This document shows positions 1,744-15,923 of a DNA stretch of 24,000 bases, in pieces. The stretch is from assembly GCF_963550625.1 (NCBI RefSeq), contig NZ_CAUVCV010000005.1, forward strand, positions 68,995-92,994, read 5' to 3'. Each line of letters opens with the position of its first letter. The stretch's first letter is position 1. The DNA is from an uncultured Solobacterium sp. (GTDB lineage Bacteria; Bacillota_I; Bacilli_A; Erysipelotrichales; Erysipelotrichaceae). Both the position numbers and the translations under genes were made by a program. A model generated the notes under the pieces. The model searched no databases. It had not been told where the DNA came from and worked only from the letters and a program-made list of their open reading frames with translations.

Positions 1744-3276
1744 TTACTTTTGGAAAACAATTCTGCCATTAACAATTGTCATAAACACTTCTAATTCACG
1801 ACAATCTATTGGATCAGTGTGTAATATGTCTCCATCAATTACAGTTAAATCTGCAAGTTTACCAACTGTGATTGAGCCTAAATCTTTTTCGCGATAAAAA
1901 TCGTAAGCACCACCGGATGTCCAACTTTCTAATACTTCAACAGGTGTTAAACAGTTTTCTTGATTGAAAGGAAGACCACCTTCTGGAAATAGACCAGTAA
2001 CAGAGTAATAGATAGATTCAGGAATATTATCAATAACAAGTGGTAAATCTGTACCGCAACATAGTGGAACCCCATAATCTTTCATCTTACGACGATTCCA
2101 ATAGTTTTTTCCGCGTTCCATCCCAATCATCTTTTTGATCATTCCAACTTTATCGTCATAACTAGTAATTGATTGAATTTGTGGATAGTATTCACAAATA
2201 ATGCCTAGATCTGCCATTCGTTTTAAATCCACTGGATCACTGAACTCAGCTTCGGTTATAGCATGGCGATTAACAAGTTTACCGTTATGATCTTTTTCAC
2301 ATAGGCTAAAAATATCTACGGCTTTAGCTACAGCGCCGTCACCTTGCGCATTTAGTGAAAACCGTGTACCTAGTCTATCTGCTTCTAGTACTTCATCTTG
2401 AATTAAATTCCAATCAATATTTAGTTTGCAGTTATAAGTTTGATTCTCATATGGGTACTTTAATAAGCCGTTTCCTTGAGAAATAGAACCATCGGTCATA
2501 CGGTTAAAACCAGAAAAGCGAATAAACTCAGAGTTAAATTCAGCCATCATTCTTTTTGCATATTCGAAGTCAGCATTTGAACTAACAGGCTGTGACATAA
2601 AATGTACACGAAGATTTAACTCGTTTTTAGATTCCAGTTCAGATAAGATATCTTGAAATCCACTAAATTGGTCAAAGCCAATTTCTTTTACGGAAGTAAT
2701 TCCACGCGAATTCAGCATAGACGTATATTTTTTGAATAATGGTTTAATAAAACTCTTATCTTTTAACACTTCATCTAATAATTTCCAAAACACTTCGTTA
2801 CAGTCTGCGGTTAAGTCAAATCCGTAATGATTGATTGCTGTTTTATTTATCCAGAAATGATCACCACTTATAGAAAAGATAACAAGACGGCAATTTGGAA
2901 ATAATTCCTCTAATCTCTCTGGACTTGGAACCGTAAAATTATCAGATATTCCATGGCCGAAAAGAGAATCTTGCATCGTATATTGAGATTTTAGAATTTC
3001 AATTACTTCGGTTTCAGTATTTGCTGTTGAAAGATCAATTCCGATATGACGTAGAGACCATCCAGTGAAGAAGGTATGTGCATCAAAAAAACCTGGCAAG
3101 ATTGTTTTGCCACTTAGGTCATATATAGGATAATTTTCTTGTAATGAAGAAGGGATAGGACCGTTTTCAACAGATTGAATTTTATTATTTTGTATGATTA
3201 TATAGCCGTTGATGATTCCTTGTTCATCAGAGCAAAAAATATGATCTGATTTTAAGATATATTGCGTAATAGACAT
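1744..3276 (-). CDS. amidohydrolase-family protein (YtcJ-like / Amidohydro_3 type), divergent
   Basis: 510 aa. The order of blocks LPGFFDAH, MTDGSIS, NAQGDGAV, NRHAITEAE, CGTDLPL and C-terminal GKLADLTVID matches the layout of COG1574-type TIM-barrel metal hydrolases. AGGAGG (minus strand, 3281-3286) lies just upstream of the ATG. Confidence 0.75.
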   Translation of the reverse strand: MSITQYILKSDHIFCSDEQGIINGYIIIQNNKIQSVENGPIPSSLQENYPIYDLSGKTILPGFFDAHTFFTGWSLRHIGIDLSTANTETEVIEILKSQYTMQDSLFGHGISDNFTVPSPERLEELFPNCRLVIFSISGDHFWINKTAINHYGFDLTADCNEVFWKLLDEVLKDKSFIKPLFKKYTSMLNSRGITSVKEIGFDQFSGFQDILSELESKNELNLRVHFMSQPVSSNADFEYAKRMMAEFNSEFIRFSGFNRMTDGSISQGNGLLKYPYENQTYNCKLNIDWNLIQDEVLEADRLGTRFSLNAQGDGAVAKAVDIFSLCEKDHNGKLVNRHAITEAEFSDPVDLKRMADLGIICEYYPQIQSITSYDDKVGMIKKMIGMERGKNYWNRRKMKDYGVPLCCGTDLPLVIDNIPESIYYSVTGLFPEGGLPFNQENCLTPVEVLESWTSGGAYDFYREKDLGSITVGKLADLTVIDGDILHTDPIDCRELEVFMTIVNGRIVFQK

Positions 3277-3391: not shown

Positions 3392-4141
3392 TTATTCAGA
3401 TTTAAAAGTTTCAAATCCGTATTCTGCTTTGTCACATGGCATATAGGATGTTGTGAATTCAACAATGCTTCCACTAGAGTCATGCCCAATATATTGAAGA
3501 TTGTAAATATAACTATCAGAGGTTATACCCATAATTTTAGTAATTGGGTGAAATGCTTTTTGAATTGTAAGTTTTTGTTCAAATGAAATTGGAAAGTGCT
3601 CTTTCTGTTTCATGTAATCATAAAGCGAGGCCTTTGAGAAATCATGACCTTGGATATCACTAAAATATTTGAATGGGAGATAGCAGTATTCAAGAGCAAT
3701 ACTTTCACTATCAATCTTACGCAAACGGTGTAAAGCATATATTTTCTCGCCATGTTTTAAATTAAGCTTCTTCTCAATGTATGTTTGATCCTGAATAATA
3801 CCTTCTTCTAAGATGTAATTTTTGAGAGTTAGACCATGTTTATTAATAAATGCACCAAGGCCAATACTCTTACCTGTAGAATGATCGTTCAAATACAAAA
3901 TTTTATTTGTGATTTTCTTTGTCACAAAAGTGCCATTATTTTTAACTCGGAATAAATAACCCTCATCAATTAAAGTATTGATTGCATGTTTAACCGTCAT
4001 ACGATTTATGTGATAGAGTGCAGACATTTCTCGTTCACTAGGAATCTTTTCTCCAGGTAAATATTCACCATCTTTAATACGCTGGATAATTAAGTTTTTT
4101 AACTGAATATATAAAGGAATTTGGTAGTTCATAATTATCAC
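3392..4141 (-). CDS. GntR-family transcriptional regulator, HutC subfamily (UTRA-type effector domain)
   Basis: Winged-helix signature EKIPSEREMSALYHINRMTVKHAINTLIDEGYLFRVKNNGTFV plus a ~170-aa C-terminal domain. GTG at 4139-4141 abuts the TAG stop (4142-4144) of the upstream paralog. ATG at 4132 (MNYQIPLY) is an alternative start. Confidence 0.85.
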   Translation of the reverse strand: MIIMNYQIPLYIQLKNLIIQRIKDGEYLPGEKIPSEREMSALYHINRMTVKHAINTLIDEGYLFRVKNNGTFVTKKITNKILYLNDHSTGKSIGLGAFINKHGLTLKNYILEEGIIQDQTYIEKKLNLKHGEKIYALHRLRKIDSESIALEYCYLPFKYFSDIQGHDFSKASLYDYMKQKEHFPISFEQKLTIQKAFHPITKIMGITSDSYIYNLQYIGHDSSGSIVEFTTSYMPCDKAEYGFETFKSE

Positions 4142-4846
4142 CTAAATTAACTCGAATGAGAAGCGATCATACTTCATATAACTTTCAGTAAAAGCAAGAA
4201 CATGGTTATGCTTGTCGAATATACATCCAGAAAGCAAGGCTACATTTGCGGTGTTAGAAAGTTCTAAAGAATCTCGATAACTGTTTTCCGCTTCAATGAC
4301 ACGGATACGCTGTGTTGTTCTATAGAATTCAAATTGAAATTTATCTATCAAAATGTCATTTAAATTTTCAATATCTTCTTTATAATTCACGAGTTCAGGG
4401 GCAAGATTCACAGGGATAAAACAATAGTCCATACATACCGGTTCATGGTCTGCGATTAATAATCGCTTTATTTCAAAAAACTTTGTTCCAAGTGGCAAAT
4501 TTGTTTCACGGCATAAATATTTATCGGCTTCGATTTCAACAAATTTAAATAGCTTTGTCTCATATGTTGAAACGTTATCTTTTATAATTTCTGACATTAA
4601 ACGAATAGAATTTACATTTTTTGAAATTCGTTGTTTTGCTACAAAATACCCAACTTTAGGTACAACATCAACAATTCCCATTTCTTCTAGAATTTTCATA
4701 GCCGAACGAAGGGTTAAACGCTGAATTGAAAAAAGATCACATAATTCGCGCTCGCTTGGGAGCTTGTCCTGATATTTTAAATGTTGATCAGCAATATATT
4801 GTCTTATTTCATTGCTTATCATAATATCCAATGTCATAACTTTCAT
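4142..4846 (-). CDS. GntR-family transcriptional regulator, HutC subfamily (second, divergent paralog)
   Basis: DKLPSERELCDLFSIQRLTLRSAMKILEEMGIVDVVPKVGYFV winged-helix signature plus a UTRA-sized C-terminal domain. No SD before ATG 4846. Confidence 0.85.
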   Translation of the reverse strand: MKVMTLDIMISNEIRQYIADQHLKYQDKLPSERELCDLFSIQRLTLRSAMKILEEMGIVDVVPKVGYFVAKQRISKNVNSIRLMSEIIKDNVSTYETKLFKFVEIEADKYLCRETNLPLGTKFFEIKRLLIADHEPVCMDYCFIPVNLAPELVNYKEDIENLNDILIDKFQFEFYRTTQRIRVIEAENSYRDSLELSNTANVALLSGCIFDKHNHVLAFTESYMKYDRFSFELI

Positions 4847-4900
4847 GCACTTATTTTAACAACTTTGTATATATTTAATCAAATACAATAATGTAAGGGG

Positions 4901-4928
4901 TTGCAAACCTATTATCAACTGGTATAAT
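4901..4928 (+). promoter_or_regulatory. extended -10 promoter of the permease/kinase/deglycase operon
   Basis: TTGCAA (4901-4906), 16-nt spacer ending in TGG, then TATAAT (4923-4928), giving TGnTATAAT. Confidence 0.55.
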
Positions 4929-4954
4929 AAAATTAAATAGTGGTATATATGTAA

Positions 4955-7160
<2,206 letters not shown>

Positions 7161-7161
<1 letters not shown>

Positions 7162-7940
7162 TGGCAGTTATCAGAATGACATTCTTCTCTACTGCTTTAA
7201 GGATGACAACAAACTGTAATATATTAATACCCGATAATTCAAATGATGTAACACCAATATGTAATGGTCAGTATAAAACCTTATATCTATTACATGGTTT
7301 ATCCGGTAATGCAGAGGAATGGATTCGGTTTACAAAACTGGAATATTATGCAAAGAAATTTGGCTATATCATTGTTATGCCTGAAGTAGGAAGAAGTTTT
7401 TATACAAATATAGATGGGATTAATTATGCAAAATATATTGCGGAAGAACTTCCTAATTATTTAAGTCAGTGGTTTAAAATTCCAACACAAAAAGAGTGTA
7501 CTTATATTGCTGGTGAAAGTATGGGTGGATATGGAGCATTGAAAATTGGATTTAGTTATCCAAAACAATACCAATCGATAGCGGCATTATCACCAGTAAT
7601 ACATTTAGAAGAACTACGTTGTATGGTTGAGAACAAAGTGTTCGAAGAAATGGGTGTTGATGAGATTGATAGAATCATTTCTCAAAATGATTACTTTGAT
7701 ATCTATAAATATCTTGATAACAAACCAAGTAAAGATTACCCTTCTGTTATTCAATTGTGTGGGACAGATGATTTCTTGGTTGATAGCAATCAAAAGTTCT
7801 ATCACTATGCAAAGAATAAGATAGATATTACTTATCGAGAGTTAAGTGGTGATCATGAGTGGCCTGTATGGGATATTGCAATACAGAAAGCTATACAATA
7901 TTTTGAAAAATATGACATTGATCATTTTCGGCTATATTGA
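7161..7940 (+). CDS. esterase D / EstA-type serine esterase (PF00756-like)
   Basis: YLLHGLSGNAEEW, nucleophile elbow GESMGGYGA, C-terminal GDHEW. The N-terminus MAVIRMTFFS resembles streptococcal EstA. ATG 7161 overlaps the kinase stop (TAATG). The track start TTG 7155 is less likely. Confidence 0.85.
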
Positions 7941-7958: not shown

Positions 7959-9020
7959 ATGATAACAACAGAATTATGGAAAGAAAACGAAGGTGCTAAT
8001 CTCCGTAACTTTCATGAAGAACAAGATTTAAAAAGTGTAAATGGTGCATTAGCTTTACGCAAAGATATTGAAAAGATTATTGATAAAATTTGGGATGAAG
8101 GATTTGATAATATTTTCTATATTGGTATTGGAGGGACATATGCGTCCGCAATGCAAGTTGAAGTATATATGCGCGGAAGAAGTAAATTGCCAGTATTTGT
8201 AGAAAATGCAGCAGAGTTTTTAACAACAGGGAATAAAAGATTTACAAATAAGTCTATAGCGATTCTATCTTCCGTATCTGGCAATACTTTAGAGATGATC
8301 GAACTAGTGGATAAGGTACATGAAATTGGTGGAAAGGTATTTAGTTTTATCGATACACCAAATACAATTCTTGCACAACCGGATAAACAAGATTATCTAA
8401 TTTTGTATCCAAAAAATGAACAACTAAAATTCTACATGACCGCAAATTACTTCATGTATAAAAACGGGGAATTTGCAGAATATGATGACTACAACCAAAA
8501 TATGGAAAACTATTTAGCAGAAGCATTGGTCAATGTAGAAAAGCAAGCAGATACATGGGCGTACCAGTATGCTATGCAGAAAGTTGAATTTTTAGATAAA
8601 CATCCAGATTTACCTCACTATTTTATAGGTGCAGGTAACCAATATGGTGCAACATATTCATATGCTATGTGCTATTGGGAGGAACAAATGTGGATACGAA
8701 CAAAATCTATAAGTTCTCCTGAATTTTTCCATGGTATGCAAGAAATAATAGTAAAAGATACACCAATTACCTTATTTATCGGTGAAGATGAACAAAGACC
8801 GTTATCCGAAAGGGTTGCACGATTCCTTCCACAAGTAAATTCAAATTACGTTATTATTGATACAAAAGAATTTGAATTAAGCGGAATCAAAAAAGAATAT
8901 CGTGGCAGCATATCCCATCTGGTTATGCATGCAGTAAATAATCGCGTTGATGCGTATATGGAAAAATTCCTAAGACATCCATTGAGTATAAGAAGATATT
9001 ATCGCCAGTTCGATTATTAA
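7959..9020 (+). CDS. frlB: SIS-domain fructosamine-6-phosphate deglycase-like protein
   Basis: 353 aa. Phosphosugar-binding loop IGIGGTYASA, PEFFHGMQEI (E..HG) block and a C-terminal RRYY motif, as in FrlB/FraB-type deglycases (recalled). GGAGAG RBS 7 nt upstream. Confidence 0.85.
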   Translation: MITTELWKENEGANLRNFHEEQDLKSVNGALALRKDIEKIIDKIWDEGFDNIFYIGIGGTYASAMQVEVYMRGRSKLPVFVENAAEFLTTGNKRFTNKSIAILSSVSGNTLEMIELVDKVHEIGGKVFSFIDTPNTILAQPDKQDYLILYPKNEQLKFYMTANYFMYKNGEFAEYDDYNQNMENYLAEALVNVEKQADTWAYQYAMQKVEFLDKHPDLPHYFIGAGNQYGATYSYAMCYWEEQMWIRTKSISSPEFFHGMQEIIVKDTPITLFIGEDEQRPLSERVARFLPQVNSNYVIIDTKEFELSGIKKEYRGSISHLVMHAVNNRVDAYMEKFLRHPLSIRRYYRQFDY

Positions 9021-9040: not shown

Positions 9041-9073
9041 ATAAATATTATCGGTTTAGCCGATAATATTTAT
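9041..9073 (+). promoter_or_regulatory. perfect 14-bp stem-loop inside the operon (attenuator, partial terminator or mRNA stabiliser)
   Basis: ATAAATATTATCGG-TTTAG-CCGATAATATTTAT, followed only by GTTTC (weak U-tract). Lies in the 121-nt gap between the deglycase and the next gene. Confidence 0.45.
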
Positions 9074-9141: not shown

Positions 9142-9954
9142 ATGAAATTTGGGTTATTTACGTGCGGATATCAAAGATTTGATATTGAAAAAGCATTTCA
9201 AGATGCGCAAAGATTTGGATATGACTATGTTGAATTATGGGGTGCAAGACCACATGCATATCCTTATGATCTTGAAATATGTGCAAATAGAATCAATGAA
9301 TTAATAAAAAAATACAACATGCCTGTAACTGTATATACACCAGAATTAAACGCGTATCCATTTAATTTGATGTGGGAAAATGAAAGCATGCGTGATAATT
9401 CTTTAGAATATGTTTATAAATCTTTGGATTTCGCAAAAGCCATTGGTGCAGAATATACTTTAATTTCGGCTGGACATGCTGGTTTTGAAGCTACTGAAGA
9501 AATAATAAAAGAACGTTTATATGATAGTTTGGAAAAGATAATAGCGTATGCAGAAAAAGTTGGCATAAAAATTGTGTATGAACCATTAACAATTTATGAA
9601 TCTAATGTAACAACTACGTCTAACCAACTACTGGAATTATGTAATCACTTTAATTCTCCTTATTTCTTTGCAATGAATGATATTGTTGTACCGTATATAC
9701 AAGGAGAAAATATCATTGAATTTAATAAGAAATTAGGTAGTAAATTAGTACATATGCATGTAGTTGATAGTGACGGGCAATCTGAAGATCATTACTGTCC
9801 AGGTTATGGTAATTTGCCGTTAACGAATTTCATGCAAGAACTCATAGATAGTGGGTATGATGAAACGGTTACAATTGAATTGGTAACAAAATATCTAAAT
9901 GAACCTAGTATTTACGCAAAACTAGCAATTAATAATTTAAAAGAAGGGCTGTAA
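9142..9954 (+). CDS. xylose-isomerase-like TIM-barrel sugar(-phosphate) epimerase/isomerase (FrlC-like or SgbU/UlaE-like)
   Basis: 270 aa. Blocks FTCGYQR, ELWGARPHAY, YEPL, HVVDSDG and TIELVTKYLNEP fit PF01261-type enzymes. Size and several blocks resemble fructoselysine 3-epimerase FrlC as recalled. AGGAGAG RBS. Confidence 0.8.
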   Translation: MKFGLFTCGYQRFDIEKAFQDAQRFGYDYVELWGARPHAYPYDLEICANRINELIKKYNMPVTVYTPELNAYPFNLMWENESMRDNSLEYVYKSLDFAKAIGAEYTLISAGHAGFEATEEIIKERLYDSLEKIIAYAEKVGIKIVYEPLTIYESNVTTTSNQLLELCNHFNSPYFFAMNDIVVPYIQGENIIEFNKKLGSKLVHMHVVDSDGQSEDHYCPGYGNLPLTNFMQELIDSGYDETVTIELVTKYLNEPSIYAKLAINNLKEGL

Positions 9955-9956
9955 AT

Positions 9957-10781
9957 ATGTGGATGAAAGATTTATGGCACAAAGATAAAGTCATTATAGG
10001 AACGCTGCATCTAGATGCATTGCCTGGAGATCCAAGATATTCTGCTAGTGATAGTCTAGATATAATTATTGAACATGCAAGAATGGATCTAAAATCGTTA
10101 ATTAATGGTGGCGTAGATGCCGTGTTAATATCAAATGAATTTAGTTTTCCATATCAAAGAAAAATGGACTATGTTACTGTTGCATGTATGGCAAGAATAA
10201 TTGGTGAAATAAAAAAAGATATTACAGTTCCTTTCGGAGTTGATGCAATATCTGATGGAGCCGCAACATTGGAACTTGCTAGAGCTGTAGATGCAGATTT
10301 TTGTAGAGGTACGTTCTCGGGTGTGTATGTTGGAGATGGTGGTTTATATAATAATGATATTTCCAAACTCTTAAGAAGAAAAACAGAATTGCATTTATCT
10401 AATTTAAAGATGCTTTATTTTATTAATCCAGAATCTGACAAGAATTTAGATACACGAGATTTAACTGAAATCGCAAAATCGACAGTATTCAAAACGGGAG
10501 CGGATGGATTATGTATATCTGCCAGTGCAGCAGGACAAGATGTTAATGAAGTTTTAATTCAATGTGTTAAAGATGCATGTCCAAGTGTTGCAGTGCTAGC
10601 GAATACAGGATGTAGACCTGAAACAATAGAATCCAAATTAAAGTATGCAGATGCTGCAGTTGTTGGAACATATTTTAAGACAGACGGTAAGTTACAAGAT
10701 AGTAATGGAAATAATGTAAGGGTAGATGTAAACCGAGTTAAAGAATTTATGGATGTAGTTAATCGATTCAGAAAGGAATAA
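9957..10781 (+). CDS. BtpA/SgcQ-family TIM-barrel protein, function unknown
   Basis: 274 aa. N-terminal IGTLHLDALPGDPRY matches the family hallmark (G-x-H-L-x-x-L-P-G-x-P). Starts 2 nt after the previous stop. Confidence 0.75.
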   Translation: MWMKDLWHKDKVIIGTLHLDALPGDPRYSASDSLDIIIEHARMDLKSLINGGVDAVLISNEFSFPYQRKMDYVTVACMARIIGEIKKDITVPFGVDAISDGAATLELARAVDADFCRGTFSGVYVGDGGLYNNDISKLLRRKTELHLSNLKMLYFINPESDKNLDTRDLTEIAKSTVFKTGADGLCISASAAGQDVNEVLIQCVKDACPSVAVLANTGCRPETIESKLKYADAAVVGTYFKTDGKLQDSNGNNVRVDVNRVKEFMDVVNRFRKE

Positions 10782-10788
10782 TAAGGTT

Positions 10789-12327
10789 ATGACATCAAAA
10801 TATTTTGTTGGAATTGATGTAGGAACAAATGAAACAAAGGGTATTTTGATTGATGAAAATGGACGTGAAGTTATATCAGCATATACAGCACATGGTATTG
10901 AGAATCCAAAACCAAATTATTTCGAGCATGATGCGGATGAAGTTTGGTATAAGGATGTTTGCATTATTGCTCAAAAACTAATAAAGCAATCGCAAGTTGA
11001 TCCTAAAGATATTAAGAGTATCGGAATTAGTGCACTGAGTTCAGATTGTCTACCTGTAGATATTGAAGGAAAACCATTACGCAAAGCAATTCTCTATGGA
11101 ATTGATGCACGTGCACTATCCGAATGTCAAGAATTAACCGAAAAATGGGGAAGAGATAAAGTGATTGAGCTTTTTGGCAGACCGTTAGGATCAAGTGATA
11201 TAGCCCCAAAAATTCTGTGGATAAAAAATAATGAGCCGGATGTGTATAGGAAAACACATAAGTTTTTAACGGCATCCTCTTACATAACTTTTAAACTAAC
11301 GGGAAATTATACGATCGATAACTTCTTAGGCCTAGCAAGTTTTAATCCTCTGTATAGACGTGATGGTTCAATTAATGAGCAATATGCAGAAGGAGTATGC
11401 TTGACGGGTCAACTTGCAGACCTTAAAAAGACTACAGATATAGCCGGGTATATTACAAAAGAAGCAGCAAAGGATACTGGGTTTGCAGAAGGAACAGCAG
11501 TAATCACTGGTGGAGATGATTCTGGAGCTGAGGCCATTAGTAGTGGCGTTATGACGCCCGGAGATATGTTAGTACAAATGGGTTCGACTGTGTATATGAT
11601 TTTATGTACGGATAAATTGTATGATGATAATCGCCTATGGCGGGAAGAGTTTATAGTCCCGAATACATATGATATATCTGCCGGAACAAATACATCAGGT
11701 GCTTTAACAAAATGGGTCAGAGATACTTTCTATCCGGATAAAGTTAAAGAACAAGAACAAGGTGGTATTAATGCATACCAAGCTATGATGGAGGATTTAA
11801 AAGAAATTCCTATTGGCAGTGGAGGGTTGGTTGTTTTACCTTATTTTGCAGGAGAGAGAACACCAATTAATGATGCGCATGCAAAAGGAATCATCTTTGG
11901 ATTGAATCTAGCACATACTCGAAAACATATTATGAGAGCAGCATATGAATCCGTATGTTATTCGATTAAACATCACTTTGAAATATTTAAGGAGTTAGGA
12001 ATTCCTATAAACCAGATTATGGTAACAGGTGGTGGCACAAAAAATGAAGTATGGATACAAATGTTATCTGATGTACTAGGAATCAAACTACAGACACCAT
12101 CTGTGACTATTGGCGCAAGTTATGGTGATGCGCTTATGGCAATGATAGGAGTAAATCATATTAAGGATTTTGCGGAAGCAAAAAAGCTAATTGAGACAGG
12201 CAAAGTATATTATCCAAATTTAGAGAACACAAAAAAATATGAACCTTATTATAAGATATACATTGAGCTATATAAAAAGAATAAGGAATTAATGTCTACG
12301 ATGGATGAAATAAATCAACTTGCCTAA
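10789..12327 (+). CDS. FGGY-family carbohydrate kinase (xylulokinase/L-xylulose kinase-like)
   Basis: 512 aa. N-terminal YFVGIDVGTNETKGILID phosphate-1 motif and C-terminal VTGGGTKNEVWIQMLSDVLG FGGY signature. Confidence 0.9.
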   Translation: MTSKYFVGIDVGTNETKGILIDENGREVISAYTAHGIENPKPNYFEHDADEVWYKDVCIIAQKLIKQSQVDPKDIKSIGISALSSDCLPVDIEGKPLRKAILYGIDARALSECQELTEKWGRDKVIELFGRPLGSSDIAPKILWIKNNEPDVYRKTHKFLTASSYITFKLTGNYTIDNFLGLASFNPLYRRDGSINEQYAEGVCLTGQLADLKKTTDIAGYITKEAAKDTGFAEGTAVITGGDDSGAEAISSGVMTPGDMLVQMGSTVYMILCTDKLYDDNRLWREEFIVPNTYDISAGTNTSGALTKWVRDTFYPDKVKEQEQGGINAYQAMMEDLKEIPIGSGGLVVLPYFAGERTPINDAHAKGIIFGLNLAHTRKHIMRAAYESVCYSIKHHFEIFKELGIPINQIMVTGGGTKNEVWIQMLSDVLGIKLQTPSVTIGASYGDALMAMIGVNHIKDFAEAKKLIETGKVYYPNLENTKKYEPYYKIYIELYKKNKELMSTMDEINQLA

Positions 12328-12359
12328 AAATCACACTTCTTATGAGGTGTGATTTTTTT
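12328..12359 (+). terminator. rho-independent terminator (copy T2 of the repeated hairpin)
   Basis: AAATCACACTTC-TTAT-GAGGTGTGATTT followed by T-run, starting at the first base after the kinase stop. Core identical to T1 (1702-1731). Confidence 0.8.
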
Positions 12360-12497
12360 AGGTCATGACACAGACCTAACTGGTAAAGTGTTTTTTCCGA
12401 AAAGTCAAATACCTAACTTGATTAAATGATAGAATATAAGAATATTGACATACTGTAAATCAGAATTGATTTACCAAAAATTGTGGAGGAACAGCAA

Positions 12498-13139
12498 ATG
12501 AAAAAACGTATTGCTTTATTAGTTTATCCTGATTTTAGCTTACAAGAAGTAACTAACCTGATGTATTTCTTTCGGTGGGCTTTTGATACTTTTACGGATG
12601 TTATATATACAGATCTATCTCCTGTTAGGAGTGAAGAAGGAATATTAGTGCAGCCAGTAAAAACGTGTACTAAGTTTTGTAAAGAGGATTATGATTGCTT
12701 GATTCTTCCGGGATGCAGTAATTTAACGCAACCTATACGGAATAAAAAAATAAGAGAGTTTTTAGAGTCATTCGCAAATGATAATACTTTTGTTATTGGC
12801 GCAATTTGTGCTGGTCCAGTATTCTTGGCGCAAGCAGGTTTATTGAAAAATAAAAAATATACTGCTTCGTTATATGCTGAAATGATGGAATTGTTTAGTT
12901 TTGTTGAAGAAGATAATTTCTTGCCACAATCGGTAGTAGAAGATGAAAATATAATCACTGCTGTAGGCAGTGCATTTAACGAGTTTGCAGTACATGTTGC
13001 TAGAAAACTTGGTTATGAATGCCCGGATAAAATATTAAGTGGTTATATGGATTCAGATGATGCTAATGACTATATTCATCATCTAACGGAAGAAGATTTA
13101 CTAGAATTTAAAAAGGAATTTAAAGAATTTATTGATTAA
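12498..13139 (+). CDS. DJ-1/PfpI-superfamily protein (DJ-1-like nucleophile elbow) with acidic C-terminal extension
   Basis: KKRIALLVYPDFSLQEV start and AICAGPVFLAQAG cysteine elbow. GGAGGA at 12485-12490 is 7 nt before ATG 12498, which I prefer over the track start GTG 12483. Confidence 0.8.
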   Translation: MKKRIALLVYPDFSLQEVTNLMYFFRWAFDTFTDVIYTDLSPVRSEEGILVQPVKTCTKFCKEDYDCLILPGCSNLTQPIRNKKIREFLESFANDNTFVIGAICAGPVFLAQAGLLKNKKYTASLYAEMMELFSFVEEDNFLPQSVVEDENIITAVGSAFNEFAVHVARKLGYECPDKILSGYMDSDDANDYIHHLTEEDLLEFKKEFKEFID

Positions 13140-13353: not shown

Positions 13354-13788
13354 ATGAAAGTGAATGTAGAACTATCAAAAGAATTTTCTCCTCCACATGT
13401 AACGATTTATGCGGATGCGATTACGGATGAAGTTCAGAGAGTGATTGATGTACTAGACTCTAAGGATATACCACTGATAGTGCAGAGCGAAGATCGGATG
13501 GTAGTCTTGAAAGCGGAAGAGATATATATGATACGTGTGGAGGGTGGAGACACTGTTATCTATACTGAAAACGAGAGGTATTATTCCCGAAAACGTTTGT
13601 ATGAGATGTTTGAGCAGATCGGGACTGGCTTTATGCAAATATCGAAACAAACTGTTATTAATCTTTCTTGTATAAAAAGTATAGAGACAGGCTTTGGTGG
13701 GACATTATTACTAAAGTTAAAGAATGGTTCTTCTGATTATGTATCAAGAAAGTATCTACCTGATCTAAAAAGATATCTAGGAATTTAA
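13354..13788 (+). CDS. stand-alone LytTR-domain transcriptional regulator (no receiver domain)
   Basis: 144 aa. The C-terminal ~100 aa (IYMIRVEGGDTVIYTENERYYSRKRLYEMFEQIGTGFMQISKQTVINL...SRKY) fit the LytTR DNA-binding domain. AAGGGAG RBS. Confidence 0.85.
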   Translation: MKVNVELSKEFSPPHVTIYADAITDEVQRVIDVLDSKDIPLIVQSEDRMVVLKAEEIYMIRVEGGDTVIYTENERYYSRKRLYEMFEQIGTGFMQISKQTVINLSCIKSIETGFGGTLLLKLKNGSSDYVSRKYLPDLKRYLGI

Positions 13789-13799
13789 GGAGGCAAAAC

Positions 13800-14240
13800 A
13801 TGAAAACAAAGAAACAAACACTGCTATTTAACATATTCATATCAATGGGTATTGCCGCAATGATGTTTATTATCGTTGGAGTTATTATTGATTGTATCTT
13901 CCATGGAAATATGGAGATGACAAATTACGCATTTTCTAAGATGGCTATCGCAACCGTGGTAATTGGACTTGGCTTTGGGATACCTGCAATAGTTTATGAC
14001 AATGAGAAGTTATCACTTTTTACACAGACAATTATTCATATGGGAACGGGTTGTATTGTTATGACTGTTACTGCGTATCTTGTGGGTTGGATTCCTATGA
14101 ATCATGGGCCACTACTAATGATTGCGATACTCGTAGAAGAGATTGCCGTTGCATTTGTTATTTGGTTTCTATTTTATCTACAACAGAAGAAACTGGTAAA
14201 ACAGATGAATCAACGAGTGAAAGAAATAAATAATGAATAG
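13800..14240 (+). CDS. small four-TM membrane protein (DUF3021-like partner of LytTR regulators)
   Basis: 146 aa with four hydrophobic segments and a basic C-terminal tail. AAGGAGG RBS overlaps the LytTR stop, with an 11-nt gap between genes. Confidence 0.7.
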   Translation: MKTKKQTLLFNIFISMGIAAMMFIIVGVIIDCIFHGNMEMTNYAFSKMAIATVVIGLGFGIPAIVYDNEKLSLFTQTIIHMGTGCIVMTVTAYLVGWIPMNHGPLLMIAILVEEIAVAFVIWFLFYLQQKKLVKQMNQRVKEINNE

Positions 14241-14276: not shown

Positions 14277-14339
14277 GTTTGGGATGATAAATTATAATTT
14301 ACGTATTAAGATAGAGAGGTGCTTTTAAGGAGATTTATT

Positions 14340-15923
14340 ATGAAGTGGTATGAGAATGCGGTGTTCTATCATATTTATCCATTAGGATTAACGGATGCAC
14401 CGAAGAATAATGATTATCAAATTACAGAACATCGTTTGAATCAATTGGGTCCTTGGATTAAACATATCAAGGAAATTGGCTGTAATGCACTATATATTGG
14501 ACCATTATTTGAATCGGTTGGACATGGATATGAAACAACCGATTACTATAAGTTGGATTCTAGACTTGGGGATAATGAGGATTTAAAGAAGTTTGTGAAA
14601 GAATGCCATCATCAAGGTATTCACGTAATCTTTGATGGTGTCTTTAATCATACGGGAAGAGAATTCTTTGCGTTTAAGGATATTCAACAGAATCGTGAAA
14701 GCTCTCAGTATAGAGATTGGTATTGTAATGTGAATTTCCAGGGGAATAATGAATATAATGATGGCTTTTCCTATGATAACTGGGGTGGCTATAACTTACT
14801 TGTAAAACTCAATCAACAAAATCCAGCGGTAAGACAATACCTGTTGGATGTGGTGAAATATTGGGTAAGTGAGTTTGATGTGGATGGTATTCGACTAGAT
14901 GCGGCAGATGTATTAGACTTTGGCTTTATGCATGAGTTACGTATGCTGGCGAATGAAATCAAGCCTGAATTCTGGTTGATGGGGGAAGTGATTCATGGCG
15001 ACTATAGTCGTTGGGTAAATCCTGATATGTTACATTCTGTGACAAACTATCAATTATATAAAGCGTTATATTCTGGACATAATGAACATAACTATTTTGA
15101 GATTGCCCATACAGTGCGTTATCTATTAGATAAAGGTAATCTGCCATATCATCTTTATAACTTTGTGGATAATCATGATGTGGAACGTATTTATACAAGA
15201 CTACTCAATAAACAGGAATTTGTACCAGTACATATTTTGATGTATACACTACCGGGTATCCCTTCTATTTATTATGGTAGTGAGTTTGGCATTGAAGGAA
15301 GAAAAGAGAAACATTCCGATGCAGTTTTACGTCCTGCAATTAGCTTGGAAGATTATCCAAATGCAGTAAATGAGAATGGCTGTACCAATATTATCGCAAG
15401 ACTTGGAAAAATTCGACAGAAGAATCCAGTATTTACAGATGGAATTTACCACGAACTACGACTAACAAATCGTCAGTATGCTTTCTCACGTACAAATGAG
15501 ATAACACACGCAATCGTTGTGGTGAATAACGATGAAGCGGATTCATCACTAGAAATCCCAGCAAATGGAACTTATACAGAGCTACTGAGTGGAGAAGTTC
15601 AGTCTGTTGAAGGAAGTCTACACGTTCAATTGCAAGCATGTTCAGGACAAATCTGGATGAAAGACTATGATGAAACAGTAACTAGGAAAAGAGAAGTTAA
15701 GATTCCGGAAGTCAAGCAAGTTGCAGTAAAAGAGGAAGCAATCAAGCAGGCAACTGTCGATCATAGTAAATCTTATGAAGAGATGAGTGTTGAAGAACTA
15801 CAAGCATGTGTTCTAGAAAAACTTGCAAAGAATGGCCCTGTAACAGAACAAATGAAACGTGATGTCGCAAATAATGTTTATCATGATTCATTGGTTAACT
15901 GGGTAAAGAGCTTTAGAAATTAA
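14340..15923 (+). CDS. cytoplasmic GH13 alpha-amylase-family glycosidase with a non-catalytic C-terminal extension
   Basis: GH13 conserved regions DGVFNH, GIRLDAADV, WLMGEVIHG and FVDNHDVER. No signal peptide. AAGGAG RBS 7 nt before ATG 14340 (MKWYEN), which I prefer over the track start at 14319. Confidence 0.9.
   Translation: MKWYENAVFYHIYPLGLTDAPKNNDYQITEHRLNQLGPWIKHIKEIGCNALYIGPLFESVGHGYETTDYYKLDSRLGDNEDLKKFVKECHHQGIHVIFDGVFNHTGREFFAFKDIQQNRESSQYRDWYCNVNFQGNNEYNDGFSYDNWGGYNLLVKLNQQNPAVRQYLLDVVKYWVSEFDVDGIRLDAADVLDFGFMHELRMLANEIKPEFWLMGEVIHGDYSRWVNPDMLHSVTNYQLYKALYSGHNEHNYFEIAHTVRYLLDKGNLPYHLYNFVDNHDVERIYTRLLNKQEFVPVHILMYTLPGIPSIYYGSEFGIEGRKEKHSDAVLRPAISLEDYPNAVNENGCTNIIARLGKIRQKNPVFTDGIYHELRLTNRQYAFSRTNEITHAIVVVNNDEADSSLEIPANGTYTELLSGEVQSVEGSLHVQLQACSGQIWMKDYDETVTRKREVKIPEVKQVAVKEEAIKQATVDHSKSYEEMSVEELQACVLEKLAKNGPVTEQMKRDVANNVYHDSLVNWVKSFRN

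Follow-up and report, generated by a model that had tools for sequence, protein, structure and literature searches.

A BtpA/SgcQ-family gene and an FGGY kinase gene associated with a predicted Amadori-compound utilisation cluster in a Solobacterium

The window considered here is a 24,000-nt stretch of contig NZ_CAUVCV010000005.1 from an uncultured Solobacterium, a non-photosynthetic member of the Erysipelotrichaceae. It contains a tightly packed trio of genes, encoding a PF01261 TIM-barrel protein, a BtpA/SgcQ-family protein (PF03437) and an FGGY-family kinase, downstream of the genes for a predicted fructoselysine pathway. The trio very probably belongs functionally to this Amadori-compound cluster. 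That it is the distal part of one extended operon for the use of glycated lysine, to which it adds a second ketoamine branch, is a narrower claim, which we put forward at a little short of an even chance. The three open reading frames, the gaps between them (2 nt from the first gene to BtpA, 7 nt from BtpA to the kinase) and the family assignments were exactly as described in the original prediction for this DNA, and the Pfam scores are all far above the gathering thresholds (PF01261, 133.7 bits; PF03437, 212.5 bits; FGGY_N and FGGY_C, 153.3 and 123.8 bits). The nearest genomes are Solobacterium metagenome-assembled genomes with 90-94% protein identity and identical gene order.

On sequence grounds, the first gene of the trio encodes a true FrlC, one of two options offered in the original prediction. 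On the NCBIfam FrlC equivalog model NF007360 its product scores 350.3 bits, above the cutoff of 305, and its scores on other models are much lower (IolO, 86 bits; UlaE/SgbU, 33-42 bits against cutoffs of 200-317). The product and E. coli FrlC share 46% identity, and in an alignment of the two the Glu-Asp-His-Glu metal/catalytic tetrad is kept: E (YEPL), D (MNDI), H (HMHVVD), and E (TIELV).

The genes preceding the trio make up, by homology, a complete fructoselysine pathway in the same orientation (Table 1). They include the set by which an frl-type operon is recognised: an amino-acid-type transporter, for which the best NCBIfam match is FrlA (566 bits, below the cutoff of 800); a ketoamine kinase, 42% identical to E. 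coli FrlD; a phospho-ketoamine deglycase; and GntR/UTRA regulators, here two and divergently transcribed, 21-23% identical to E. coli FrlR. SIS deglycases cleave the C-N bond of phospho-ketoamines, and the window protein is a member of the group that includes Salmonella FrlB/FraB and the GlmS type: phmmer matches it in the PDB to 2A3N (195 bits) and to 8GLR, the Salmonella FrlB (190 bits), while it reaches just 47.7 bits on the E. coli-type FrlB model (cutoff 430). It has a Glu242...His258 pair, the 16-residue spacing being that of FrlB/FraB/GlmS; the pair is described as catalytic in the FrlB paper. Two deglycase paralogues circulate among related loci, the 353-aa Salmonella-FrlB/2A3N type of the window and a 341-aa E. 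coli-FrlB type, which is 52-57% identical to E. coli FrlB and about 20% to the window protein (for example L091 2244-3269 and L005 14613-15641). The start of the esterase gene is ambiguous: the TTG at 7155 overlaps frlD, and related contigs use a later start (259 vs 261 aa; 7205 in L001).

Table 1. Genes and RNA structures of the predicted Amadori-compound cluster, in window coordinates.
Feature	Position	Strand	Remarks
Amidohydro_3 metal hydrolase	1744-3276	-	PF07969, 106.6 bits
Two tandem GntR/UTRA (FrlR-like) regulators	3392-4846	-	GntR and UTRA domains in both; divergent from operon
FrlA-like APC permease, predicted for glycated lysine	5021-6370	+	56% identical to E. coli FrlA
frlD, predicted fructoselysine 6-kinase (PfkB)	6367-7161	+	NF007321 equivalog, 320.6 bits (cutoff 247)
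PF00756 esterase	7155-7940	+	72 bits
Double-SIS ketoamine-6-phosphate deglycase, Salmonella FrlB/2A3N type	7959-9020	+	353 aa
Intercistronic stem-loop between deglycase gene and frlC	9041-9073	+	15 pairs, 3-nt loop
frlC, predicted fructoselysine/psicoselysine 3-epimerase (PF01261 TIM barrel)	9142-9954	+	270 aa
BtpA/SgcQ-family protein (PF03437)	9957-10781	+	274 aa
FGGY-family kinase (FGGY1), xylulokinase-like	10789-12327	+	512 aa
Intrinsic terminator closing operon after kinase gene	12328-12362	+	-21.4 kcal/mol, z = -6.9, then UUUUUUU

Conservation was examined in two surveys. One was anchored on BtpA and covered 80 species-representative loci of at least 596 relatives, with neighbours within 10 kb assigned by BLAST and clustering; the other was anchored on the kinase and covered metagenome loci with at least 8 kb on both sides (n = 18). 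Orthologues of the window kinase (FGGY1) and FrlC each neighbour BtpA in 50/80 loci, followed by GntR regulators (45/80; paired GntR genes recur in 45/80), Amidohydro_2 (42/80), YjbQ (41/80), a second FrlD paralogue scoring 370 bits on the FrlD model (39/80), the permease (38/80), window-type FrlD (36/80), Amidohydro_3 (30/80), window-type SIS protein (29/80), a second PF01261 paralogue, "APe281" (25/80), a HAD phosphatase (21/80), and the esterase (18/80). At least two frl genes are present in 54 of the 80 loci. The gap between BtpA and FGGY1 is at most 50 bp in 19 loci and at most 1 kb in 35. Seen from the kinase, an frl gene was present in 18/18 loci, FrlC in 17/18, FrlD in 16/18, and BtpA in 14/18. 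BtpA-FGGY adjacency, which the original prediction had proposed to check across genomes, is therefore conserved from both directions, and with BtpA and the kinase linked in 50 of the 80 species-level genomes, the arrangement of the trio is not a matter of chance. Carriers of BtpA loci include Erysipelotrichaceae, Oscillospiraceae, Lachnospiraceae, Bacillaceae, Anaerococcus, Coriobacteriia, Sphaerochaetaceae, and Anaerolineaceae; in Caproiciproducens, the whole frl cluster is bracketed by BtpA and FGGY1.

The kinase is not a housekeeping xylulose or glycerol kinase by the models applied; firm clustering with either of these was part of what the original prediction had counted as evidence against itself. 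Its best NCBIfam match is XylB, below cutoff on both models (TIGR01312, 308.3 against 380.25; PRK15027, 179.6 against 912); it also fails GlpK (151.8 against 590.35) and is below cutoff on every other specificity model tried. Its motifs are intact (GIDVGT at 8, GGDD at 241, GGGTKN at 414). Orthologues in frl clusters are 48-71% identical to it, and the FGGY2 kinases of the ula-like loci discussed below 25-27%; judged by these sequence comparisons, FGGY1 forms an orthologous group of its own that is bound to frl clusters. In two Anaerovoracaceae-like contigs (L092 and L093), an isolated FrlC-FGGY1 pair was found, the genes 9 bp apart and the FrlC 53% identical to that of E. coli, with no BtpA, FrlD or deglycase near the pair. 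The kinase is an frl-cluster enzyme with FrlC as its tightest partner and BtpA as a frequent, not obligatory, third member. Its substrate may well be a ketoamine, although we would stop just short of calling this likely. Its start codon is ambiguous, several related contigs having a call upstream that overlaps BtpA (521 aa); the start is at 10789 in the window and at 10797 in L001.

Immediately upstream of FGGY1, on the same strand, most kinase-anchored metagenome loci have an orthologue (42-58% identity) of the window's Amidohydro_3 protein, which is a core partner of the kinase, though divergent and distant in the window. The closest PDB relatives of this protein and of the Amidohydro_2 partner found elsewhere are all uncharacterised structures.

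To our knowledge, no biochemical function has been established for BtpA/SgcQ proteins, as the original prediction also held. A sequence search of the window protein against all PDB chains gave no match at E <= 0.01, the literature searched offered no function, and for the sgc operon of E. coli a 2026 PNAS paper, which reports induction on nitrogen-containing substrates, still calls the function unknown. The window protein matches PF03437 over residues 10-269 (cutoff 30 bits) and TIGR00259 (222.8 bits, cutoff 153.4), and fails the cyanobacterial photosystem I biogenesis equivalog NF045918 (122.4 bits against 400). Across phyla, members of its subfamily share 64-93% identity, and 127 alignment columns are invariant.

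An AlphaFold2 model of BtpA (predicted local distance difference test score 84.5) is a (beta-alpha)8 barrel with glycine-rich loops, an invariant NTG after strand 7 and an invariant VGT after strand 8, and an invariant His18-x-Asp20 after strand 1. The loops after strands 7 and 8 are the usual phosphate site of such barrels, and in the model BtpA is predicted to bind phosphate in this way. Two low-confidence loops (63-65 and 122-130) bear invariant residues and are likely active-site lids. Foldseek searches with the model put GGGPS/PcrB on top, with HisA, TrpA, RPE, KDPGal aldolase, ThiE, IGPS, HisF, and TrpF also among the matches (template modelling, TM, scores 0.5-0.6; 10-18% identity); such modelled matches give the class of barrel, not the function. 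A class I aldolase was considered and rejected, there being no invariant lysine at the catalytic (C-terminal) strand end in the model.

The nearest named relative is SgcQ of the E. coli sgcREAQCBX operon (41% identical). In both settings, BtpA stands beside a supplier of phosphorylated sugar (a phosphotransferase system, PTS, in sgc; a kinase in the window), and some related loci have an RPE-family gene beside BtpA, like sgcE. The sgc operon differs from the window by its galactitol-type PTS and its M42 peptidase-like SgcX, and by the lack of an FGGY kinase and of frl genes. SgcQ also differs at positions invariant in the window subfamily: LHLD is replaced by CHLR, and the GVYVGDGGLYNND loop is replaced as well.

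A further comparison is with TrpF and HisA. They catalyse Amadori rearrangements, and their products are 1-amino-1-deoxy-ribulose-5-phosphates, the chemical class proposed below for the BtpA substrate. They share with the BtpA model the (beta-alpha)8 ribulose-phosphate-binding type of barrel (Foldseek rank 6 for HisA, 37 for TrpF), but there is no detectable sequence homology, and the TM scores (0.54-0.57) are no better than for many barrels. The modelled resemblance gives a clue to the mechanism but does not show that BtpA belongs with them.

The following scheme can be proposed. By homology, FrlA would import the conjugate, FrlD would convert it to fructoselysine-6-phosphate, and the Salmonella-FrlB-type SIS enzyme would split this into glucose-6-phosphate and lysine, with FrlC predicted to interconvert psicoselysine and fructoselysine, which are C3 epimers. 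A second branch would be made up of the FGGY kinase and BtpA, probably of pentulose type, for a related ketoamine closed to the PfkB kinase; the likeliest substrate would be a pentulose-type conjugate such as ribulose- or xylulose-lysine. Ribulosamines exist in cells. In a 1-amino-1-deoxy-pentulose, the C5 hydroxyl, the sole free primary one, forms the ring, and FGGY pentulokinases use open-chain ketoses; a pentulosamine is attractive as a substrate because its terminal hydroxyl is exposed in that open-chain form. The kinase would phosphorylate the terminal hydroxyl of the ketoamine, and BtpA would bind the phosphorylated product and supply one step that no adjacent enzyme family covers. The step favoured here is a C1-C2 aldose-ketose isomerisation (reverse-Amadori, TrpF/HisA-like) yielding a pentose-5-phosphate and lysine, in which the Amidohydro_3 hydrolase may assist; the main alternative within this scheme is that BtpA might epimerise the phosphate ester into a substrate for the SIS deglycase.

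Any specific reaction assigned to BtpA is doubtful. The most explicit version, in which BtpA/SgcQ proteins of this clade are non-SIS phospho-ketoamine isomerases/deglycases that act on pentulosamine-5-phosphates made by an FGGY "ketoamine 5-kinase", in the reverse of the TrpF/HisA Amadori direction, must be regarded as a long shot. BtpA is unrelated in fold to the SIS enzymes, and if it deglycates, it would be a non-homologous solution. Were this version true, pentose-derived glycation products would have a pathway that has so far gone unrecognised, and PF03437, with E. coli SgcQ among its members, would gain a first biochemical function.

Several observations count against a ketoamine branch of this kind. 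The steps of the distal branch are all inferred. The window already has a SIS deglycase, and a second deglycase is not strictly needed. BtpA is absent within 10 kb of some kinase loci. A HAD Cof-type phosphatase lies immediately downstream of BtpA in 19/80 loci (in the order BtpA-HAD-FGGY1), and the scheme leaves it unexplained. The fold matches of BtpA are generic, with GGGPS/PcrB above HisA and TrpF, and when profiles of the BtpA clade and of RPE-like/SgcE proteins were compared, no homology was detected (probability 0.8%). Finally, the same BtpA clade is found in operons resembling E. coli ula, with a PTS, phospho-lactonase and decarboxylase and no amino-acid-linked gene, which favours a plain sugar-phosphate as the substrate.

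This second context is substantial. BtpA adjoins RPE-family and AraD-like genes in 25 loci (AraD-like genes, PF00596, are present in 24/80), and seventeen loci have a kinase of another type, FGGY2. Five of the 25 (L018, L019, L020, L026, L084) also encode a UlaD-like (KGPDC-type) decarboxylase, in the gene order KGPDC-BtpA-RPE-AraD, as well as a PTS of the ascorbate type and a PTE-type phospho-lactonase; the UlaD-like decarboxylase beside BtpA scores 189 bits. The operon in L079 reads LacI-BtpA-FGGY2-UlaE-type-AraD-like, its PF01261 gene passing the UlaE/SgbU subfamily cutoff (253 against 200), and true UlaE-type genes also stand beside BtpA in L048, L076, and L082. The frl and ula-like contexts are fused in twelve loci, and in a neighbour-joining tree of BtpA they are intermixed by taxon, which makes the clade one orthologous group.

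The E. coli ula/sgb pathways (UlaD/SgbH, UlaE/SgbU, UlaF/SgbE, LyxK) resemble these BtpA loci in having UlaD-like, UlaE-type and AraD-like proteins and an FGGY kinase, all of them pentulose-5-phosphate families; this, together with the XylB-like nature of the kinases and the RPE-family genes beside BtpA, suggests that the partners of BtpA share a pentulose-5-phosphate scaffold. The window itself shares with ula/sgb only a PF01261 protein, and that protein is FrlC, not UlaE/SgbU, just as the kinase is FGGY1, not FGGY2. The original prediction had also suggested that BtpA might occupy the decarboxylase/aldolase slot of such a pathway. This did not hold up: a domain scan of the window found no decarboxylase (PF00215), RPE or AraD-type (PF00596) protein, and the related loci encode a decarboxylase, AraD-like and RPE-like or UlaE-type proteins beside BtpA. 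Because recognisable genes fill the decarboxylase, 3-epimerase and 4-epimerase/aldolase slots alongside it, BtpA fills none of them; ula/sgb has no BtpA counterpart, and BtpA is an additional component. The KGPDC-BtpA-RPE-AraD loci without a PF01261 gene raised the idea that BtpA takes the place of the UlaE/SgbU 3-epimerase. As the only role of BtpA this was rejected, and a simple replacement is unlikely, since other loci hold BtpA plus a UlaE-type gene, an RPE-like gene or both.

A plain-sugar role for the window genes, unlikely in our estimation but the strongest of the alternatives, would be as follows. The kinase and BtpA would handle a rare ketose or a sugar acid, in plain form, along sgb/ula-like lines, with the kinase yielding a pentulose-5-phosphate (for example L-xylulose-5-phosphate) and BtpA acting as an isomerase or epimerase toward the pentose-phosphate pathway; the frl genes would share only regulation and neighbourhood with them, both serving the scavenging of heat- or host-modified sugars. 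The ula-like operons, L079 among them, and the intermixed BtpA tree speak for it, as do the company that SgcQ keeps with a PTS and the RPE-like SgcE and the fact that XylB is the best model for the window kinase. Yet the window lacks not only the three enzymes named above but any sugar transporter, its sole transporter being FrlA-like. FGGY1 belongs to another orthologous group than the FGGY2 of the ula-like loci and is found essentially only beside frl genes, and in L092 and L093 it is paired with FrlC alone. In L052, the genes are joined to an amino-acid permease: this locus has an FrlA-like permease, two GntR genes, BtpA, FGGY2 plus two further FGGY kinases, and RPE-like and AraD-like genes, with no PfkB, SIS or FrlC within its 13.9 kb. 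The confinement of FGGY1 orthologues to frl clusters, the FrlC-only pairs and L052 fit better with the other proposal of the original prediction, a second ketoamine branch, perhaps for C5 substrates.

A quite improbable alternative makes the kinase, BtpA and, elsewhere, the HAD phosphatase into an ATP-driven phosphorylate-epimerise-dephosphorylate shunt. A ketoamine stereoisomer that cannot be metabolised (tagatose-, sorbose- or psicose-lysine, for example) would be turned into fructoselysine or its 6-phosphate for FrlD and FrlB, with BtpA as a metal-dependent epimerase acting on the phosphorylated ketoamine. The HAD gene downstream of BtpA in 19 loci is in keeping with this, RPE is among the fold neighbours of BtpA, the His18-x-Asp20 motif is invariant, and the extra PF01261 paralogues ("APe281", 25 loci) point to the processing of more than one stereoisomer. 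Against this, there is no HAD gene in the window; the RPE-like, UlaE-type and AraD-like epimerases that co-occur with BtpA make more epimerase capacity seem redundant; the C3 epimer is already dealt with by FrlC at the unphosphorylated level; and, because the profile comparison was negative, the idea of an RPE-like HxD motif is without sequence support.

A last reading makes the adjacency incidental: the kinase would have a housekeeping role, as a xylulokinase or glycerol kinase, and BtpA would be no enzyme but a factor for the biogenesis of membrane complexes. It is suggested by the top XylB match and by a family name that comes from a photosystem I biogenesis phenotype (relatives are labelled "membrane complex biogenesis BtpA family protein" in some sources). 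It is contradicted by the conservation of the linkage across phyla in both anchoring directions, and is rendered very remote by the failed XylB, GlpK and cyanobacterial cutoffs, the lack of a xylose isomerase gene (xylA) or glp genes nearby, the close spacing inside one terminator-bounded unit, and the invariant columns, including the glycine-rich loops after strands 7 and 8, that point to an enzyme.

Returning to the ketoamine branch, the system to compare is the E. coli frlABCDR operon for fructoselysine and psicoselysine, reportedly worked out by Wiame and Van Schaftingen. The APC permease (56%), PfkB 6-kinase, FrlC and a GntR/UTRA regulator are common to both, as is the logic of phosphorylating and then deglycating. 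The window differs in having the Salmonella FrlB/2A3N paralogue as its deglycase and two regulators, and E. coli frl is without the esterase, Amidohydro_3, BtpA, and FGGY kinase; clusters in other species add a second FrlD, Amidohydro_2 with YjbQ, a HAD phosphatase, and a second PF01261 paralogue. Searches of the literature (BtpA/SgcQ/PF03437; fructoselysine with FGGY; frl with Intestinimonas or Collinsella) found nothing tying BtpA or an FGGY kinase to Amadori catabolism, and the additions of Amidohydro_3, Amidohydro_2 with YjbQ, HAD and a second FrlD to frl were likewise undescribed in what was searched. The frl pathway and FrlC are already known; what the searched literature does not describe is their conserved extension by BtpA/SgcQ and an FGGY kinase dedicated to these clusters.

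Fructoselysine and other Amadori compounds are plentiful in cooked food and glycated host proteins, and they influence which bacteria prosper in the gut and the mouth. A kinase and a deglycase suffice for the known pathway. Dozens of species in at least four phyla add to this core a fixed set of uncharacterised proteins (BtpA/SgcQ, FGGY kinase and Amidohydro_3; elsewhere Amidohydro_2 with YjbQ, and HAD phosphatase), which implies undescribed substrates or chemistry. BtpA/SgcQ proteins are widespread, with a member in E. coli, and the context narrows the candidates to a short, testable list of phosphorylated ketoses and ketoamines that can be bought or synthesised.

Some features of the related loci are worth recording. 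A fixed array of FrlD-paralogue, FrlC, Amidohydro_2 (PF04909) and YjbQ (UPF0047) genes takes the place of E. coli frlB in 42/80 BtpA loci (for example L007 973-3958 and L006 2178-5148); it is not in the window. In 21 of 50 FrlD-bearing loci, no SIS deglycase of either type was found in the fetched region, on account of which Amidohydro_2 with YjbQ (or BtpA) may be a non-SIS deglycase. Apparent loss of the SIS gene in L147 and L101 (contigs BNJV01...), and of BtpA in one of them, was dismissed, all matches being fragmentary in frameshift-rich assemblies. In 18/80 loci an orthologue of the esterase gene separates frlD from the SIS gene; outside Solobacterium, these orthologues show 40-47% identity. 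An NhaC-type Na+/H+ antiporter-family transporter (PF03553), which may be an alternative importer or an exporter of lysine or another product, flanks the BtpA or kinase genes in six loci, including L016 (13174-14892), L047, and L052. The most divergent BtpA fetched (48% identity; outgroup locus L088, 9168-18370) is in the order DeoR, BtpA, ABC sugar transporter, IF-2B (MtnA-like sugar-phosphate isomerase), M29 aminopeptidase, FMN reductase, and FGGY kinase; BtpA-family genes recur beside aminopeptidase-like genes, the M29 enzyme here and SgcX in E. coli. Together with L052 and the induction of sgc on nitrogen-containing substrates, this hints at links to amino-acid conjugates beyond the frl clusters.

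The stem-loop upstream of frlC had been noted in the original prediction, with a stem of 14 bp; the structure is there, but the scan gave one pair more (Table 1). As RNA it folds with a free energy of -18.9 kcal/mol (z = -6.1 relative to shuffled sequences), it is present in a single copy in the window, and it is kept in eight Solobacterium-type loci. Because the U-tail that follows is poor (GUUUCAUAUC), it is read as an intercistronic RNA structure or stabiliser, or at most a leaky terminator, and not as a hard operon boundary. The terminator after the kinase gene (Table 1) is strong and canonical. One variant of the stem-loop changes an A-U pair to G-U, leaving RNA pairing intact and breaking the DNA palindrome; on this ground, and because the window has no second copy, a role as a GntR operator was rejected.

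Directly past the terminator is a DJ-1/PfpI-family gene (PF01965, 85 bits; 12483-13139, + strand). The family includes glyoxalases and disputed "deglycases". Orthologues 92-96% identical are present in L002, L010, L095, and L102, and absent from the same spot in L001, L003, L004, and L009. Just downstream is a conserved pair encoding a LytTR DNA-binding protein and a DUF3021 membrane protein (13354-14240), and then an alpha-amylase-family gene (14319-15923), these genes having no visible relation to the trio.

At the other end of the cluster, the divergent promoter region (4900-5000) contains a good sigma-70-like promoter, TTGCAA-16-TATAAT with TG (4901-4928), and repeated TGGTATA motifs. These include an inverted pair, GTGGTATAT and ATATACCAC, about 40 nt apart, and are plausible candidate operators for the two GntR/HutC-type regulators.

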